DNA of 14,974 nt from the IMG/VR virus record IMGVR_UViG_2711768058_000014; one strand, given 5' to 3'. Under the pieces are notes generated by a model. It made no database searches, was not told where the DNA came from, and saw nothing but the letters and a program-made list of their open reading frames with translations. Origin of the DNA: a virus (Duplodnaviria > Heunggongvirae > Uroviricota > Caudoviricetes). The position numbers and the translations under genes are program-made. Below are positions 1-14,974 of the stretch, piece by piece. Position 1 is the stretch's first letter. Each line of letters opens with the position of its first letter.

Positions 1-1218
1 ATGAACAAACTGAGCGACACATTGCTAAGGAAACTTCATGGTAAGCCAGCGGAGAAAAACACGTTTTATAGCGATGGCGGAAATCTGAGCGTGAAATATT
101 TAACATCAGGGAAATTAACCTGGTATTTCACTTACAGGGCAGGAACGGGAAGAGAGACACGACCGGAACGTATTAAGCTGGGAAATTATCCTGATCTGAG
201 TCTGAAAGCAGCCAGGGAAAAAGCCGCCCAGTGCCGCGCATGGCTGGCTGAGGGGAAAAATCCACGTCATGAGATGAATTACACCGTACAGGAAGCGTTA
301 AAGCCCGTAACGGTTGGCGATGCGCTCACCTACTGGCTTGAGTCTTACGTAAAGGAAAACCGCGTGGATTATATCGCCCTGAAAAGGCGACTTAATAATC
401 ACGTAATACAGCAGATTGGTGCTATGCCGCTGGATAAATGCGAGCTACGGCACTGGCTGGCCTGTTTTGACCAGGTGGCAAAGCGAACGCCTGTTACTGC
501 CGGATTCGTGCTACAGGCGTGCAAACAGGCGCTTAAGTTCTGCCGTAGGCGGCGCTATGCAATCAGCAACGTTCTGGACGATCTGAACGTGGCGGACGTT
601 GGGAAAAAACCGGATATAAGCGAACGTGTCTTAAGCACCAAAGAACTGGGCGAGTTATTGCAGGCGCTGGATAAAAAAATATTTTCCCCTTACTACGTCG
701 CGTTAATCCGCCTCCTGATTGTCTTCGGAGCCAGAACGGTAGAACTGAGGTTATCGGAGATCGGGGAGTGGGATTTTACGGAAATGCTATGGACCGTTCC
801 GAAGGAGCACAGCAAAACGAAGGTCGCAATATTCCGGCCCATACCGGAAGCGATCCTGCCGTTCGTCACGCAGCTGGTGGAGCAGAACAGGCACACGGGC
901 TTATTGCTGGGGGAAGCGAAACAGGAGGCCAGCGTATCGCAGTATGGAAGATTAGCGCACAGGAGGCTTAATCATCCTCACTGGTCACTGCATGACATCC
1001 GGCGCACCTTTACAACCATGCTGAACGATTTAGGCGTTGATCCGCATGTCGTGGAGCAGCTTACAGGTCATCAGATGCCAGGAATGCAGCGAGTTTATAA
1101 TCATTCCCGTTATCTGGATGCTAAACGCAATGCGCTGGATATGTGGACGGAGCGGTTAGGGATACTGGCGGGAACACATGAAAACGTAACCACGCTACCA
1201 GTAGCCAGAAGAAAATAA
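1..1218 (+). CDS. int: P4-family tyrosine integrase
   Basis: 405 aa; N-terminal arm-binding-type region (LSDTLLRKL...FYSDGGNLSVKY...KLGNYPDLSLKAAREKA) and C-terminal catalytic region with HDIRRTF...H...Y residues typical of tyrosine recombinases; ATG at position 1. Confidence 0.9.
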   Translation: MNKLSDTLLRKLHGKPAEKNTFYSDGGNLSVKYLTSGKLTWYFTYRAGTGRETRPERIKLGNYPDLSLKAAREKAAQCRAWLAEGKNPRHEMNYTVQEALKPVTVGDALTYWLESYVKENRVDYIALKRRLNNHVIQQIGAMPLDKCELRHWLACFDQVAKRTPVTAGFVLQACKQALKFCRRRRYAISNVLDDLNVADVGKKPDISERVLSTKELGELLQALDKKIFSPYYVALIRLLIVFGARTVELRLSEIGEWDFTEMLWTVPKEHSKTKVAIFRPIPEAILPFVTQLVEQNRHTGLLLGEAKQEASVSQYGRLAHRRLNHPHWSLHDIRRTFTTMLNDLGVDPHVVEQLTGHQMPGMQRVYNHSRYLDAKRNALDMWTERLGILAGTHENVTTLPVARRK

Positions 1219-1265
1219 TTTTTTTCGTGTTTTTTCAGTATGCGCATACTGGATATGCGAACAGA

Positions 1266-1320
1266 TACAACATGCAACAATGAGCAACAATGCGGAACAA
1301 CTACGAACAAGAGACGAAAA
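1266..1320. repeat. Five to six (C/G)AACAA copies at exact 10-bp phasing
   Basis: Blocks ...tacaa / caacaa / caacaa / gaacaa / gaacaa / cgaaaa end at 1270, 1280, 1290, 1300, 1310, 1320. Confidence 0.55.
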
Positions 1321-1404
1321 AGTGTACGGATTTATAAGTAGCTGATTTTTAATGTGTTACTGGTTTTTTATACACTAGCGAATCACTCTTTAAATAGCGA
1401 GAAA

Positions 1405-1436
1405 AAAGGCATGAAACAATATTTTATGCCTTTGTA
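1405..1436. terminator. Hairpin AAGGCAT-(13 nt)-ATGCCTT flanked by A-run and T-run, possibly bidirectional
   Basis: Inverted repeat with U-rich flank read directly from sequence, between int and alpA. Confidence 0.35.
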
Positions 1437-1592
1437 TTAACATGAATTTAAATGATTTTATCCTGATTATTCCTGTTTCTGTAAACCATACGACCTCAAC
1501 ATTTGCCAACTCTGAATCATCCTGACACAATCAGACACCTCCCAACGCAATAGAACACGAAATAACTCTTTAAGAAACGAAAGGGGGCAATA

Positions 1593-1781
1593 GTGTTAAG
1601 CACTGATCGGTTTATACGTGAAAAAGAATGCGAAAAGCTAACAGGCCTTAGCCGCTCATGCCGCTACCGCCTGGAAAAGGCCGGACAATTCCCATCACGT
1701 CGTAAACTTGGCGGTCGTTCCGTTGGCTGGTCTTTATCCGAGGTTCTGGCCTGGAAGGATAGCTGCAAGGCAGTTCATTAA
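1593..1781 (+). CDS. alpA: AlpA-family transcriptional regulator (MerR-like helix-turn-helix)
   Basis: 62 aa; KLTGLSRSCRYRLEKAGQFPSRRKLGGRSVGWSLSEVLAW matches the AlpA pattern; GTG start preceded by AAGGGGG ribosome-binding site. Confidence 0.8.
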   Translation: MLSTDRFIREKECEKLTGLSRSCRYRLEKAGQFPSRRKLGGRSVGWSLSEVLAWKDSCKAVH

Positions 1782-2045
1782 TCACGCTGGCGGCACGCAG
1801 CCGCCACACATCCACTAATACAGAGATATAACCATGAAGATTGAATATGCGCCCGAACGTGGGCGGGGATTCGTTCGCCCTGGTGAAACTGAAAAACAAC
1901 AAAATTGGGGTTTATCAGGAATAAAAAAAGCGGCCCCGAAATGGAGCCGCCTTTCTGAACAGATAACCCGCTGCGCCGTTTGTGTGTGTGATCCCAAACA
2001 TAAGAACGGCAATGATAGTCGCTATCAGGCTGGTGGGCAATGTTA

Positions 2046-2219
2046 TCAGTCTGGTTCAGTTCGTTGCCATACCTGCAATGAGCGCTTTTCCCTGTACTCT
2101 TTAAGGAATTGCTCAAGGGCAAAAGCACATGGCGCGAATCTTTCTGATTCATGCTCTATCTTTCTGCGCCGTCTTTTCCGTGCCGGTGATAATGTTTTGG
2201 TCAATTCTTTATCGGTCAT
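2046..2219 (-). CDS. Small basic hypothetical protein (57 aa, ARKRRRRK stretch)
   Basis: ORF downstream of the RHH gene on the same strand; AGGA 7 nt upstream of the internal ATG at 2219; possible terminator hairpin at 1930-1950 with T-run on the minus strand. Confidence 0.4.
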   Translation of the reverse strand: MTDKELTKTLSPARKRRRRKIEHESERFAPCAFALEQFLKEYREKRSLQVWQRTEPD

Positions 2220-2276
2220 TGTGTTGTCCTGCATAGCAATGCGCCGTAGTACCTCACACCACGGCGCTGGTGATGG

Positions 2277-2456
2277 TTACTCCTGCTCTTTGGCCTTGCG
2301 GCGCTGGCGGCGTTTGATTTCGCCTTTAACGGCAGTAACTATAAATTGCGCTTTGCTTTCACCTTCATCTAAATTTTTTTCTAAGTCTGCAACAACATCA
2401 TGCGGGAATCTGGCATTTAACTGTTGCGACTTATTATTTGTTGAACCTGTTGCCAT
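2277..2456 (-). CDS. Ribbon-helix-helix (Arc/CopG-like) DNA-binding protein, candidate repressor
   Basis: 59 aa from ATG at 2456, preceded by GAGAGGA; predicted beta-strand QQLNARFPHDVV followed by two helices; faces a divergent intergenic region. Confidence 0.6.
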   Translation of the reverse strand: MATGSTNNKSQQLNARFPHDVVADLEKNLDEGESKAQFIVTAVKGEIKRRQRRKAKEQE

Positions 2457-2477
2457 TACAGAATCCTCTCTAAGTTG

Positions 2478-2568
2478 GTGCGATTCAGTATACACAAAAA
2501 AAATTCAGAGAAAAAGGCTTGAAGTGCGATTCACTTGCTGATAGGTTAAAAACAGATGGTGCGATGCA
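2478..2568. promoter_or_regulatory. Three copies of GTGCGAT(T/G)CA in the divergent promoter region, candidate operators
   Basis: Copies at 2478-2487, 2524-2533 (inside AAGTG-cgatt-CACTT) and 2559-2568 (inside GGTGC-gat-GCACC). Confidence 0.45.
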
Positions 2569-2640
2569 CCAAATAACAACACCCCGCAGTGCGGGAACAC
2601 ATACGGGGCGTCTAACCAACAACGTAAACTAGGAGCCGTT

Positions 2641-2841
2641 ATGGTTGCCGTAAATCATATACCACACCTTGTACACACACAAACGGCCTTTGTGTGGCGT
2701 TTTCTGGCACTGAGTGCCGGAGAATCTCAAATCATCCACGTAACCGCCTGGACGGAACGCGAAGCGCGTAGCCGTTGCCCGTCCGGTTGTGTTGCTGTAT
2801 TCGCCGCCCGTATTCGTCAGGAGGTGTGCCATGTGCAATAA
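2641..2841 (+). CDS. Hypothetical small protein (66 aa), possible first gene of the replication operon
   Basis: AGGAG 5 nt upstream of ATG; stop overlaps the next start; composition unremarkable, so uncertain. Confidence 0.35.
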   Translation: MVAVNHIPHLVHTQTAFVWRFLALSAGESQIIHVTAWTEREARSRCPSGCVAVFAARIRQEVCHVQ

Positions 2842-3070
2842 AACCACACCGGACGCAGCAGCCGCCGCGCTCACTACGCTGATGCACGCGCTTATTGATA
2901 TTTCTGTTATTGCTGACAGGGCGCATAAGCACGCCACCAATGAAACAGAATATGCCGGGGCTTTCGTTCCTCATTCGCTGGCGGTTATGCAACTTAGTGC
3001 TGATATGGCGCTGAATGAGGATAAAGCCATCCTGATTGCTGATTGTGAAAATGGGGGTGGTTATGCGTGA
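2831..3070 (+). CDS. Hypothetical small helical protein (79 aa)
   Basis: AGGAGG ribosome-binding site then ATG at 2831; stop overlaps the next start in ATGCGTGA. Confidence 0.55.
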   Translation: MCNKTTPDAAAAALTTLMHALIDISVIADRAHKHATNETEYAGAFVPHSLAVMQLSADMALNEDKAILIADCENGGGYA

Positions 3071-3296
3071 TGATCGTTTTAATTCCCTGAAACAGGAATT
3101 TTCCGGCGTTCCTGATGATGCGGCTGATGCGCTTTCGTCAATGCCAGAGCTTATTAGAGCGGCTTTTTTCTTACTTTCCACGAGAGAATATAAATCAACG
3201 GGGCTTGATGTACTGAATATCGCCGCCGATTATGCGGAATATGTGGCAGAGGCGCATTACAGAAGAAAATTTCCTGAGGATGTAAGCCATGCGTGA
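3063..3296 (+). CDS. Hypothetical small protein (77 aa, starts MRD)
   Basis: GGGGGTGG ribosome-binding site; ATGCGTGA overlaps at both ends (translational coupling). Confidence 0.55.
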   Translation: MRDDRFNSLKQEFSGVPDDAADALSSMPELIRAAFFLLSTREYKSTGLDVLNIAADYAEYVAEAHYRRKFPEDVSHA

Positions 3297-3522
3297 TATT
3301 TACCACGAAACAATATACCGTGCATCACTTGCACTTTCTCACAGTGAAAGCATGATGGAAATATTGCGGATGTGCCTTGAATCCTTTGGCGATAATGAAC
3401 GTAATGCAAAAAAAACGCGGATTATTACATCATTAATAACGCTTCTTGAGCCTGTAATAAATGAGTTGCAGGAAATAGAGACATTGCACGACAGATATAA
3501 CGAACAGCACACCGGAGAATAA
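3289..3522 (+). CDS. Hypothetical small protein (77 aa, starts MRD)
   Basis: Start embedded in the same ATGCGTGAT junction as the preceding gene. Confidence 0.55.
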   Translation: MRDIYHETIYRASLALSHSESMMEILRMCLESFGDNERNAKKTRIITSLITLLEPVINELQEIETLHDRYNEQHTGE

Positions 3523-3527
3523 AAATA

Positions 3528-3827
3528 ATGAAACTTAAATATTCTGGCTTAACTGCCAGTGGCAACACTCACCCTAAATTTACGCGCGGTGATATTTACC
3601 GCGACCAGTACGGCGGCACGGTAATGATTAAGGGCGTGGAAGAACGGCGCGTAACCTACCGCCGTGAAGGCTACGAATATGACTGCGTGATGCCTGTTTA
3701 TCAGTTCCGGCGTGATTTTTCTCTGGTACAGGCAGCGCCCCGCAGTAAACCAACCAGCAGGGAGAAAGCACGCGCCAATATTCAGGAAATAAAAAAGATA
3801 CTTAACGTATTCAGGGGTAAAAAATGA
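3528..3827 (+). CDS. Hypothetical protein (99 aa)
   Basis: ATG 6 nt after the previous stop; its stop overlaps the primase start (ATGA). Confidence 0.6.
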   Translation: MKLKYSGLTASGNTHPKFTRGDIYRDQYGGTVMIKGVEERRVTYRREGYEYDCVMPVYQFRRDFSLVQAAPRSKPTSREKARANIQEIKKILNVFRGKK

Positions 3828-5578
3828 AACTGGCACCGAACGTAAAACAGCAGTCACGCGGCATAAAACACAAAGAAACAGAAGTCATTATTTTTGCGGG
3901 TAGTGATGCCTGGTCACACGCGAAACAATGGCAGGAACATGATGCGCGTATGGCCGGAGATAATGAGCCTCCTGTGTGGCTTGGGGAGCAGCAGCTATCC
4001 GAACTGGATAATCTGCAAATTGTGCCGGAAGGCCGAAAATCAGCACGCATATACAGGGCCGGATATCTTGCGCCAGTAATGATAAAGGCGATTGGCCAGA
4101 AGCTGGCGGCGGCAGGCGTACAGGATGCAAATTTTTACCCTGATGGTATGCACGGTCAGAAGGTGGAGAACTGGCGCGAATATCTGGCCCGTGAGCGCCA
4201 GAATCTTTCTGATGGTCTGGTCATTGAGCTTCCGGTAAAGCAAAAGGCGCAACTTTCGCAGATGGCGGACAGTGAGCGCGCGCAGCTGCTTGCCGATCGC
4301 TTTGATGGCGTTTGCGTACATCCTGAAAGTGAAATCGTTCACGTATGGCGCGGCGGGGTATGGTGTCCGGTCAGCACAATGGAACTTAGCCGCGAAATGG
4401 TGGCGATCTATTCAGAGCACAGGGCCACTTTCAGCAAGCGCGTAATCAATAACGCCGTGGAAGCGTTAAAAGTTATTGCCGAACCAATGGGCGAGCCGTC
4501 CGGCGATTTGCTGCCGTTCGCCAATGGTGCGCTTGACCTGAAAACGGGGGAATTTTCCCCGCACACGCCGGAGAACTGGATCACCACGCACAACGGCATT
4601 GAGTACACGCCACCAGCACCAGGGGAGAACATCCGCGATAACGCGCCAAACTTTCATAAATGGCTTGAGCACGCAGCCGGAAAAGACCCGCGCAAGATGA
4701 TGCGTATATGTGCCGCGCTGTACATGATTATGGCGAACCGGTACGACTGGCAGATGTTTATTGAGGCCACCGGAGATGGCGGGAGCGGTAAAAGTACATT
4801 CACGCACATAGCCAGCCTTCTGGCAGGGAAACAGAACACGGTAAGCGCTGAAATGACGTCGCTTGATGATGCTGGTGGACGTGCGCAGGTTGTCGGGAGT
4901 CGTCTTATCGTCCTGGCTGACCAGCCGAAATATACAGGCGAAGGAACGGGCATCAAGAAAATCACGGGCGGTGACCCCGTGGAAATTAACCCGAAATACG
5001 AAAAGCGTTTCACGGCTGTAATCAGGGCGGTGGTGCTGGCGACCAACAATAACCCGATGATATTCACCGAACGGGCCGGAGGTGTGGCACGTCGTCGCGT
5101 GATTTTCCGTTTCGACAATATCGTCAGTGAGGCCGACAAAGACAGGGAGCTACCGGAAAAGATCGCGGCTGAAATCCCTGTCATTATCCGCCGATTGCTG
5201 GCGAACTTTACCGACCCTGAGAAGGCACGGGCTTTACTACTGGAACAGCGTGACGGTGATGAAGCTCTGGCAATAAAGCAACAGACGGATCCGGTTATTG
5301 AGTTTTGCCAGTTCCTGAATTTTCTGGAGGAAGCACGCGGCCTGATGATGGGCGGCGGTGGCGATTCAGTGAAGTACACGACCAGAAACAGCCTTTACCG
5401 CGTCTATCTGGCGTTTATGGCGTACGCAGGCAGGAGCAAACCGCTAAACGTAAATGACTTTGGCAAGGCTATGAAGCCAGCCGCGAAAGTTTACGGACAT
5501 GAATATATTACGCGGAAAGTTAAGGGAGTAACGCAGACTAACGCAATAACAACAGACGAGTGCGACGCGTTTTTATAA
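3824..5578 (+). CDS. P4-family primase / D5-type NTPase replication initiator (pri-rep)
   Basis: 584 aa; Walker A GDGGSGKST about residue 320 followed by a Walker B-like hydrophobic stretch ending LIVLAD; region resembles the phage/plasmid primase P4 C-terminal domain; iterons immediately downstream. Confidence 0.85.
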   Translation: MKLAPNVKQQSRGIKHKETEVIIFAGSDAWSHAKQWQEHDARMAGDNEPPVWLGEQQLSELDNLQIVPEGRKSARIYRAGYLAPVMIKAIGQKLAAAGVQDANFYPDGMHGQKVENWREYLARERQNLSDGLVIELPVKQKAQLSQMADSERAQLLADRFDGVCVHPESEIVHVWRGGVWCPVSTMELSREMVAIYSEHRATFSKRVINNAVEALKVIAEPMGEPSGDLLPFANGALDLKTGEFSPHTPENWITTHNGIEYTPPAPGENIRDNAPNFHKWLEHAAGKDPRKMMRICAALYMIMANRYDWQMFIEATGDGGSGKSTFTHIASLLAGKQNTVSAEMTSLDDAGGRAQVVGSRLIVLADQPKYTGEGTGIKKITGGDPVEINPKYEKRFTAVIRAVVLATNNNPMIFTERAGGVARRRVIFRFDNIVSEADKDRELPEKIAAEIPVIIRRLLANFTDPEKARALLLEQRDGDEALAIKQQTDPVIEFCQFLNFLEEARGLMMGGGGDSVKYTTRNSLYRVYLAFMAYAGRSKPLNVNDFGKAMKPAAKVYGHEYITRKVKGVTQTNAITTDECDAFL

Positions 5579-14809: not shown

Positions 14810-14974
14810 TCAATGTGTTATGCGAAATAAGTTATATATAACAGCAATAAATAATGCGAGAATAAACGGCACGATGATCTCGGCGGCAAAACGGATACCG
14901 CAGAGAATAATGACCAGCATTCCCAACATAATGACGATTTTTAGGCCATTGAGCGTGATGATCGGCTTTGCCAT
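14810..14974 (-). pseudogene. tqsA: Truncated 5' fragment (54 codons) of a tqsA/ydgG-like inner-membrane transporter gene
   Basis: Minus-strand translation [54 protein letters not shown]; N-terminus recalled as TqsA-like; the premature stop falls where island DNA begins. Confidence 0.5.

Follow-up and report, generated by a model that had tools for sequence, protein, structure and literature searches.

The window analyzed here, i.e., the whole stretch of 14,974 nucleotides of the virus record IMGVR_UViG_2711768058_000014 (Caudoviricetes), is by gene content (Pfam matches) a capsid-forming phage-inducible chromosomal island (cf-PICI) of Escherichia coli. Upstream of its replication operon lies a region (positions 2,046 to 2,640) with two small minus-strand open reading frames (ORFs), which are transcribed away from the operon, and with three copies of a short repeat in the spacer. 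Comparison with related loci supports the view that the first of these ORFs encodes a repressor, probably of the ribbon-helix-helix (RHH) type, that the repeats are its operators, and that both are exchanged between islands as one cassette. The following features were assigned (E, expectation value):

2049-2219, minus strand: 57-aa ORF downstream of the repressor gene, matching phrog_21027 (E 1.6e-15)
2277-2456, minus strand: gene of the 59-aa putative repressor (YlcI/YnfO family), ATG at 2456, ribosome-binding site (RBS) AGAGAGGAT
2478-2487: putative operator O1 (GTGCGATTCA), abutting the -10 hexamer of P_L and covering P_L +1
2487-2492, minus strand: -10 hexamer (TATACT) of P_L, the predicted promoter of the operon of repressor and 57-aa ORF
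2509-2514, minus strand: P_L -35 (TTTTCT), weak
2519-2524, plus strand: -35 TTGAAG of P_R, the predicted promoter of the icd-like-to-primase operon, with a 17-nt spacer to the -10 TAGGTT at 2542-2547
2522-2536 (core 2524-2533): putative operator O2 (palindrome AAGTGCGATTCACTT), overlapping the P_R -35 and filling the spacer
2557-2571 (core 2559-2568): putative operator O3 (palindrome TGGTGCGATGCACCA), at about +4 to +18 of P_R
2641-2841, plus strand: icd-like gene, the first gene of the P_R operon (NCBIfam phage_ICD_like, E 6e-18)
3824-5578: D5-type primase at the end of the P_R operon (Pfam D5_N, DUF5906)

The small protein and the repeated sites

The 59-aa protein was matched at residues 9-50 by NCBIfam NF041551 (YlcI/YnfO) with 63.3 bits (cut-off 30, E 1.5e-17), and PGAP places the identical protein WP_000190566.1 in the YlcI/YnfO family; a further match was obtained to phrog_949, an uncharacterised PHROG. 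Homologues form 134 clusters and occur in Enterobacterales only. The YlcI/YnfO-type family is small (94 representative clusters among 1.84 billion proteins), and a tblastn search of 50,697 phage genomes returned no homologue of the 59-aa protein at E 1e-3. Alignments of the family revealed the RHH pattern, namely a strand, short and polar/hydrophobic, with R-x-P at its end, followed by two helices with a G-E-S turn between them; the predicted beta-strand of the window protein, KSQQLNARFP, comprises residues 9-18. With hhalign, QLNARFPHDVV was aligned with QFNLRWPREVL of Arc over the strand and helix 1 (E 8.9e-4, probability 23%); the same alignment of the repressor family to Mnt gave no match. 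Family members also showed sub-threshold matches to the RHH-clan families PSK_trans_fac (best E 2.9e-4), RHH_1 (0.029), TacA1, HicB and CB_ParB_C, and a PDB profile search weakly indicated the RHH protein 3no7 (E 0.35). Matches of the 59-aa protein to helix-turn-helix or Stl-like families were found neither in Pfam nor in PHROG or NCBIfam. The AlphaFold2 (AF2) monomer has the G-E-S turn between two helices, which comprise residues 19-30 and 35-58 (mean predicted local distance difference test score, pLDDT, 68.5). An RHH fold is probable, and the protein is very probably an RHH-type DNA binder, as an earlier note on this DNA had proposed from the letters alone.

The decamer GTGCGAT(T/G)CA, which the same note had described as a triplicate facing this gene, was confirmed on the plus strand with two exact copies of GTGCGATTCA (2478-2487 and 2524-2533) and one of GTGCGATGCA (2559-2568), the second and third copies being embedded in the short inverted repeats of O2 and O3. 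When one mismatch was allowed, four copies were counted in the whole window as compared to 2.56 expected, which is not significant alone. The 184-bp spacer has three copies within 91 bp, a clustering that dinucleotide shuffling reproduced in only 11 of 2000 trials. The significance of the motif rests on comparative data. No further credible operator copy was detected in the 15-kb window, the genes alpA and int and the packaging genes included.

About 30 related cassettes were compared overall; they came from 22 loci of other species (found via protein alignment), from mosaic E. coli islands (found by BLAST) and from the prototype island EcCICFT073. Operator positions were tabulated for 18 cassettes from at least 10 genera. 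Most of these carry three GTG-N5-CA(C) sites, and in nearly all cassettes such sites are located at +22, +67 and +89 to +103 from the repressor ATG.

Furthermore, these sites occur together with promoter hexamers at fixed places. A simple consensus scan of the window missed P_L, P_R and the antisense promoter described below; all three emerged only through positional conservation across the loci. In nearly all cassettes, the P_L -10 ends 31 nt before the repressor ATG (position-specific scoring), the P_R -35 (TTGAAG/TTGACG) starts 62 nt and the P_R -10 ends 90 nt from this ATG. P_R takes the form TTGACG-17-TAATAT in locus L026 and TTGACG-17-TAAATT in cassette L027b, for example; in the window, transcription from P_R would start near 2554. 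Apart from P_R, no promoter could be recognised immediately ahead of the replication operon as a whole. The divergent position of the repressor gene relative to this operon, reported before, was found together with sites on P_R and on its own promoter P_L. Operators placed in this way over both promoters are what one expects of a repressor that would shut off the operon promoter and restrict its own production.

Exchange of the probable repressor and its operators among islands

Neither the outer GTG/CAC nor Arg16 varies across the cassettes; different residues 11-14 of the predicted beta-strand go with different inner pentamers. Nine other beta-strand variants were found, each with its own pentamer. 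Pairs of beta-strand and pentamer are listed with their sources:

KSQQLNARFP with CGATT: E. coli, Citrobacter, Morganella, Pectobacterium, Xenorhabdus
KSKKLEARVP with GCTGA: L024, L026
KSQMTTVRIP with TATTT: L027a
KSQTVAARVP with TT(C/T)AA: L027b
KSQSVTARIA with TAAGA: L028b
KSQKLQ(T/A)RAP with GAGTC: L016, L019
KSRQKTARVP with GGAGT: L017
KSQFMTARVP with TGTAT: L020
KSQALKARVP with GGCCA: EcCICFT073

An example of the operator of another repressor allele is GTGGCTGACAC. Operator recognition through the beta-strand, as expected of RHH proteins, is indicated here by the comparison of cassettes. The motif triplet had been proposed as the target set of the small protein, and its covariation with the beta-strand supports the assignment as the operator set of the 59-aa protein. 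That protein and operators together form an exchangeable cognate repressor/operator "immunity" cassette is well supported by these comparisons.

AlpA/Vis-type proteins bind repeated sites. Alternatively, the repeats may be bound by another protein, either as AlpA boxes, as origin iterons recognized by the primase or as sites of the Icd-like protein; direct repeats upstream of a replication operon could indeed be iterons, and AlpA is known to activate PICI genes (PMC6092414). However, AlpA is 100% identical in the window, L025, L027 and L028 despite their different cassettes with completely different operators. Comparison of L024 with the window revealed 100% identity of Icd-like, DUF4222 and primase N-terminus, whereas RHH allele and operators differ. 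Moreover, the sites track the RHH beta-strand across genera and their positions are tied to the promoter hexamers. Since mosaic islands dissociate the sites from these proteins, the operators are apparently not AlpA boxes, Icd sites or primase iterons, and we regard binding by another protein as extremely unlikely.

The same module is present in EcCICFT073 (L030 243-1053; CFT073 NC_004431 1380242-1381052). It comprises the identical 57-aa ORF, the YlcI/YnfO allele KSQALKARVP, operators GTGGGCCACAC at +67 and +90, and an icd-like gene.

In some islands the repressor slot is filled by an alternative Arc-like small protein, namely in L025 (1383-1556, minus strand), L028 (1387-1566, minus strand) and L029 (about 12700; O157:H7). 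These proteins (PYQMRLPEDF... or PFQFRLDPDL...) look unrelated and have palindromic sites of their own, CATGGTAATTACC; the type present in L025 and L028 matched Pfam Arc with E 0.038. For the island of O157:H7 and for L025, PGAP has no annotation of the Arc-like protein. L027 (1158-2339) and L028 (1126-2251) contain tandem pairs of repressor/operator cassettes; a separate small downstream ORF and a separate leader hairpin accompany each cassette, and L028 pairs the Arc-like with the YlcI/YnfO type. Both the Arc-like replacement (L025, L028) and the tandem cassettes (L027, L028) fit a modular immunity determinant. A different layout was seen in L005-L012 (Pectobacterium, Dickeya), where the icd-like gene follows the repressor-controlled promoter and, in L005 and L008 at least, int and alpA then follow in the same direction. 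In these genera the module may control integration/excision genes rather than sitting after alpA.

The second small ORF was likewise confirmed downstream of the RHH gene on the minus strand. Its listed form encodes 62 aa (2046-2234); the 57-aa form from the ATG at 2219 is favoured, with the better RBS (AGGA, 7 nt upstream) and the PHROG match beginning there. The family alignment shows a conserved core, ERFAPCAFALEQFLKEY, and a variable basic patch; all 36 clusters of the family belong to E. coli or Shigella. Two helices were predicted for the 57-aa protein (pLDDT 72); it had no Pfam, PADLOC or fold match (Foldseek with the AF2 model was empty), and PADLOC returned no defence-system match for any of the small ORFs. 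PGAP omits the ORF in the genome with the identical island and annotates it in CFT073. The 57-aa ORF is probably co-transcribed with the repressor gene, the transcript ending at a hairpin at 1923-1951.

Two small genes in this order could also constitute a type II toxin-antitoxin operon, in which the RHH protein would be the autoregulating antitoxin and the 57-aa basic protein the toxin. The small RHH gene comes first and the second small ORF after it, the operators are of an autoregulatory kind, and weak family matches point to the antitoxin families PSK_trans_fac, TacA1 and HicB. However, the 57-aa ORF is 100% identical beside four different repressor alleles or types, among them that of EcCICFT073 and an Arc-like type, and in L027 and L028 its reassortment does not follow that of the RHH gene. 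Only E. coli and Shigella have it, and no homologue was found beside the RHH gene in the 22 loci from other genera. Its product matches neither a toxin family nor a PADLOC model or solved fold, and two of the three operators lie on the divergent promoter instead of on that of the pair. A toxin-antitoxin operon was rejected, as a co-evolving downstream toxin was not found and the 57-aa ORF is not co-inherited; we consider this explanation very unlikely. The role of a co-repressor or toxin-like partner, suggested earlier for the basic protein, did not hold up against its identity beside differing repressors and its absence in other genera; judged from these patterns, the 57-aa ORF is not a specificity partner.

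Predicted hairpin RNA, plus-strand frame and AlpA

Between O3 and the coding region of the icd-like gene, and across the minus-strand genes, the following additional features were identified:

2579-2611, minus strand: hairpin SL2 with 13 pairs; a U-rich tract (2570-2578) comes next, on this strand alone
2571-2647, minus strand: predicted cis-antisense RNA of about 77 nt (ends deduced) with hairpins SL1 (about 2612-2646) and SL2
2654-2682, minus strand: predicted antisense promoter inside the icd-like gene, -10 TATGAT (2659 to 2654) and -35 TTGTGT (2682 to 2677), 17 nt apart
1834-2541, plus strand: long stop-free ORF of 235 aa, antisense to both minus-strand genes and the operators

The palindrome CCGCAgTGCGG, noted before as a further palindrome of the spacer, is present (CCGCAGTGCGG at 2585-2595); it is, however, the inner part of the larger hairpin SL2 and appears to be a covarying minus-strand RNA hairpin, not a protein site. 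SL2 is kept in all 28 distinct sequences, with compensatory changes in nine of the 13 pairs, and none of 500 shuffles attained the observed values. Standard pairs were found in 346 of 363 cells (95.3%) on the minus strand as compared to 309 (85.1%) on the plus strand, and almost all plus-strand failures are A.C or C.A, which correspond to G.U on the minus strand. RNAalifold also recovered SL2. Most likely, SL2 is the intrinsic terminator of an antisense RNA. Two other functions of the hairpin were rejected, namely pairing of its loop with the downstream Shine-Dalgarno sequence (SD) on the same mRNA and a boxB/boxA-like antitermination signal; the apparent complementarities were inconsistent among the loci, and the mismatches indicate the other strand.

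In almost all loci the putative antisense promoter has a TAnnnT hexamer whose end lies 35-36 nt from the TGGTTA anchor, despite differing N-termini of the Icd-like proteins. The predicted antisense RNA folds with -31.5 kcal/mol (z = -2.95). SL1 has a stem of 12-14 bp, which holds the antisense of the icd-like start codon, and presents an anti-SD CUCC in its apical loop in 25 of the 28 loci. The leader motif TCTAACCA(C/A)AA is strictly conserved between the hairpin and the icd-like SD (2611-2640, all related loci); its minus-strand complement pairs with the antisense start codon (GCCA/UGGU). Rfam searches at gathering score, and with E up to 10 over 1200-3900, gave neither C4 nor isrK and only matches at chance level, among them a SymR-like match at 2575-2646 on the minus strand (E 1.4; 19.8 bits as compared to a gathering score of 61). 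From these features, the cis-antisense RNA is predicted to block translation of the icd-like gene.

The long plus-strand ORF is in the frame of the icd-like gene and is closed by TGA-TAG at 2539-2544, at the P_R -10. Across the RHH gene, 15 of 16 alleles keep this antisense frame open (expectation, about 0.45 per allele), and the next 60 "intergenic" codons are stop-free in 12 of 15 loci as compared to 0.28 expected; the other two plus frames contain 6-19 stops. Many loci, EcCICFT073 among them, have the first operon gene in direct continuation of this frame. The frame was also observed in L003, L004, L013, L016-L018, L020, L021, L025, L027 and L030. Its product is rich in Cys, Ser, Leu and Arg, resembles an antisense translation and has no Pfam match; PGAP annotates it as a hypothetical protein or pseudogene. 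Frequently, PGAP calls the antisense plus-strand frame and leaves out the small minus-strand genes.

It could therefore be argued that the ORF at 1834-2541 with its continuations is the real gene and the minus-strand RHH frame secondary or spurious: the frame is kept open far beyond chance, and in several genomes PGAP annotates it and omits the minus-strand ORFs. The RHH protein, however, belongs to a curated family, shows the RHH pattern, has a conserved start, an RBS and a promoter, and is conserved at 60-90% of its amino acids across genera, whereas the plus-strand product has no family and an antisense-like composition, and its frame contains two stops in the window. In phage P4, the eta frame comes after vis, the alpA homologue, and encloses the constitutive promoter P_LE, the immunity RNA and, in the same frame, kil; termination is prevented when eta is translated from the late promoter upstream (PMC10111431). 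Because the P4 eta frame acts through its translation, both frames can be real without conflict, and a secondary or spurious RHH frame appears exceedingly improbable.

Farther to the left, the island carries these features:

1-1218: integrase gene (int)
1593-1781, plus strand: alpA (Pfam Phage_AlpA, E 5e-18), convergent with the repressor operon
1923-1951: hairpin GCGGCCCC-GAAAT-GGAGCCGC, flanked by A7 and T-rich runs, with a T7 run on the minus strand

The hairpin at 1923-1951 is presumably a terminator between the convergent alpA and repressor operons, likely terminating the minus-strand operon and more weakly alpA. A simple terminator scan of the window did not call it, and several weak Rfam matches at this place are terminator look-alikes. 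L024 has a different hairpin sequence at the corresponding place.

AlpA is required for the induction of E. coli PICIs, cf-PICIs included (PMC6092414; 10.1101/2022.09.08.507074), and in Pseudomonas AlpA is an antiterminator (PMC7969949, PMC9371919). An AlpA-dependent ORF3 fusion was described in EcCICFT073 (PMC6092414), which would fit translated read-through from alpA.

Four small ORFs lie between the icd-like gene, which overlaps the next gene of the operon, and the primase. Other island genes encode SSB, PerC, major capsid, S78 protease, portal, head-completion and connector proteins, HNH, TerS and TerL; tail and lysis genes are absent from the gene set of the window (Pfam and ORF list). 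The island thus combines int, alpA and primase with its own capsid and packaging set and lacks tail and lysis genes, as in the definition of cf-PICIs used here (10.1101/2022.09.08.507074). An identical copy is located inside tqsA of E. coli PS2Canimalfeces12, where the PGAP annotation was consulted. The island interrupts this AI-2 transporter gene; the tqsA N-terminus lies at the right end of the window (14810-14974, minus strand), and the remaining part is annotated as a pseudogene left of int. Comparable int-alpA-...-primase regions were found in 1764 of 5426 complete E. coli genomes.

Proposed control of the replication operon and known counterparts

Our overall reading, which we consider likely on the grounds of sequence comparison, combines an RHH repressor, three operators, an antisense RNA and induction by read-through; its core, a repressor with operators on the promoter of the replication operon, is well supported. 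The 59-aa Arc/Mnt-like RHH protein would recognize three 11-bp GTG-N5-CAC operators over the back-to-back promoters, with Arg16 probably contacting the outer GTG/CAC and residues 11-14 probably the inner five bases. Judged from their positions, O1 on the -10 and start of P_L would mediate autoregulation, O2 would act in the -35 and spacer of the sigma-70 promoter P_R, and protein bound to O3 over the P_R start would occlude RNA polymerase. As a second layer, the antisense RNA of about 77 nt would offer its anti-SD loop to the ribosome site of the icd-like gene; any leaky transcript from P_R would then go untranslated, and polarity would shut off expression of the replication genes farther down. 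Upon establishment in a naive cell without repressor, P_R would fire transiently. Induction is the least certain step: a transcript from the helper-activated alpA promoter may be translated through the plus frame in the manner of P4 eta, and such read-through would bypass P_R and oppose P_L. That the protein is a master repressor lifted by the arrival of a helper is unproven.

Only tentatively can this be extended to classical and capsid-forming enterobacterial PICIs in general. These would possess an allele-specific immunity system so far unrecognised, consisting of an RHH repressor, its three cognate operators and an antisense RNA, on the opposite strand and wholly inside an eta-like frame that is translated only when the helper has switched on alpA. 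Together, the two convergent units would behave as a bistable switch, with P_L on and P_R off during quiescence, and with alpA read-through on, P_L opposed and the repressor bypassed after induction. The alleles would then define incompatibility or exclusion groups.

Alternatively, the module may be a local regulator, in which RHH protein and antisense RNA, in the manner of SymR/SymE or of a type I/II toxin-antitoxin pair, silence a potentially toxic icd-like gene and induction is governed by AlpA alone. The icd-like gene belongs to a cell-division-inhibitor family, its ribosome site is the only target of the antisense RNA, which bears a weak SymR-like resemblance, and AlpA is necessary and its over-expression sufficient for the induction of EcCICFT073 (PMC6092414). 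However, P_R is the sole recognisable promoter upstream of the operon and the icd-like gene overlaps the next gene; silencing of the icd-like gene therefore silences the primase too. Furthermore, the allelic diversity of the cassettes is typical of immunity regions, not of a housekeeping safety catch. We regard a purely local regulator as unlikely.

Several points weigh against our overall reading. Over-expression of AlpA alone induces EcCICFT073, and alpA is essential (PMC6092414); because of this, the repressor is not the only switch and perhaps not the main one. The 59-aa window protein has no Pfam match, and PDB sequence searches with two profiles gave nothing significant. Structure prediction, which the earlier note had recommended as a check, placed the two helices as expected but not the N-terminal strand: the AF2 monomer is of low confidence and shows residues 8-13 as a weak helix. 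Foldseek with this monomer was uninformative. The plus-strand frame is encoded by the same DNA, so that covariation alone leaves its product as a possible binder of the sites. Moreover, the P_L -35 is poor, the U-tract after SL2 is interrupted, and the antisense promoter lies within a coding region, where its conservation is perhaps partly protein-driven.

Fillol-Salom et al. considered it unclear whether a global repressor exists in Gram-negative PICIs and called the difference from the Stl-controlled Gram-positive islands a mystery (PMC6092414). In a cf-PICI preprint of 2025, the gene after alpA is a variable region of unknown function (10.1101/2025.02.11.637232), and the HE-PICI paper mentions only Bro-network proteins and immunity RNAs for this zone. 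A literature search on YlcI/YnfO, and on PICIs together with ribbon-helix-helix or antisense RNA, found no relevant description. Our results suggest that E. coli-type satellites carry an exchangeable repressor of their own, a point left open in the field. The variable region after alpA would thereby gain a concrete role, with a repressor, operators on the replication promoter and a predicted antisense RNA, and the presence of the module in the laboratory model EcCICFT073 makes the predictions testable there. If true, the overall reading would explain how the primase operon is held off without AlpA, would predict immunity or incompatibility classes among satellites and would tie PICI regulation mechanistically to P4 (eta/kil), P22 immI and plasmid CopG/RNAII. 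The analysis also flags a systematic mis-annotation of the repressor region by PGAP.

The immI region of phage P22 combines the RHH repressors Arc and Mnt with the sar antisense RNA. In P22, a small RHH repressor is divergent from the operon that it controls, operators lie over back-to-back promoters, and a gene that is kept off has its ribosome site overlapped by a short antisense RNA with its start within the operon; the island module, as predicted, resembles immI in all these respects, and the Arc strand pattern Q-x-N-x-R-x-P is common to the window protein. However, P22 controls an antirepressor with two repressors, whereas the island would control a cell-division-inhibitor-like gene and the replication operon with one. 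The operators differ as well, three 11-bp GTG-N5-CAC sites in the island as compared to 21 bp for Arc and 17 bp for Mnt, and sequence similarity to Arc is marginal (E about 1e-3, probability 23%).

Plasmid pMV158 likewise controls its replication gene in two layers, by the RHH repressor CopG and the countertranscript RNAII (PMC4485353, PMC5717011), and in both systems repression must be absent upon entry into a new host. The island, however, is an integrated satellite; its repressor gene is divergent, whereas copG is co-transcribed with repB from the repressed promoter, and its predicted antisense RNA would target the first small gene of the operon, not the initiator as in pMV158. The SymR/SymE pair offers a parallel for the predicted RNA, which in both cases has about 77 nt, a promoter in the 5' coding region of its target and covers SD and start codon; the target is a potentially toxic small protein also under a transcriptional repressor (PMC1891008). 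The protein families differ, and the island target heads a replication operon.

The Stl repressor of Staphylococcus aureus pathogenicity islands (SaPIs) and Rpr of Gram-positive PICIs are satellite repressors, divergent from the replication module, that keep their islands quiescent (PMC6092414). The parallel to satellite repressors drawn at the outset is valid for this divergence but not for the further geometry. Stl and Rpr, which are helix-turn-helix proteins, are larger and unrelated; their genes point the same way as int, and helper proteins lift the repression. The island repressor operon, in contrast, is convergent with alpA and separated by alpA from int, and AlpA is the demonstrated inducer in E. 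coli PICIs. A master repressor of the Stl/Rpr type was rejected, since no homology was found and the geometry differs.

In P4, the order of int, alpA/vis, a long frame, a nested in-frame killing or division-inhibitor-like gene and primase is the same (PMC10111431). Further parallels are a constitutive promoter within the long frame, a small RNA (predicted in the island) that acts on expression at the operon start, and the proposed passage of transcription by translation of this frame from an upstream promoter that the helper activates. A protein repressor is absent from P4, however; its CI RNA is processed from the strand of the operon and is a member of Rfam C4/isrK, whereas the predicted island RNA lies on the opposite strand and matches neither family. 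Membership in the immunity RNA family of P1 c4 and P4 CI was rejected, as no covariance model matched and the hairpin pairs on the strand opposite to the operon. In the island the proposed immunity functions, i.e., RHH gene, operators and antisense RNA, are placed on the opposite strand inside the long frame, unlike in P4. By analogy, the module would work like P22 immI and like CopG/RNAII of pMV158, and in its layout it resembles the P4 leader.

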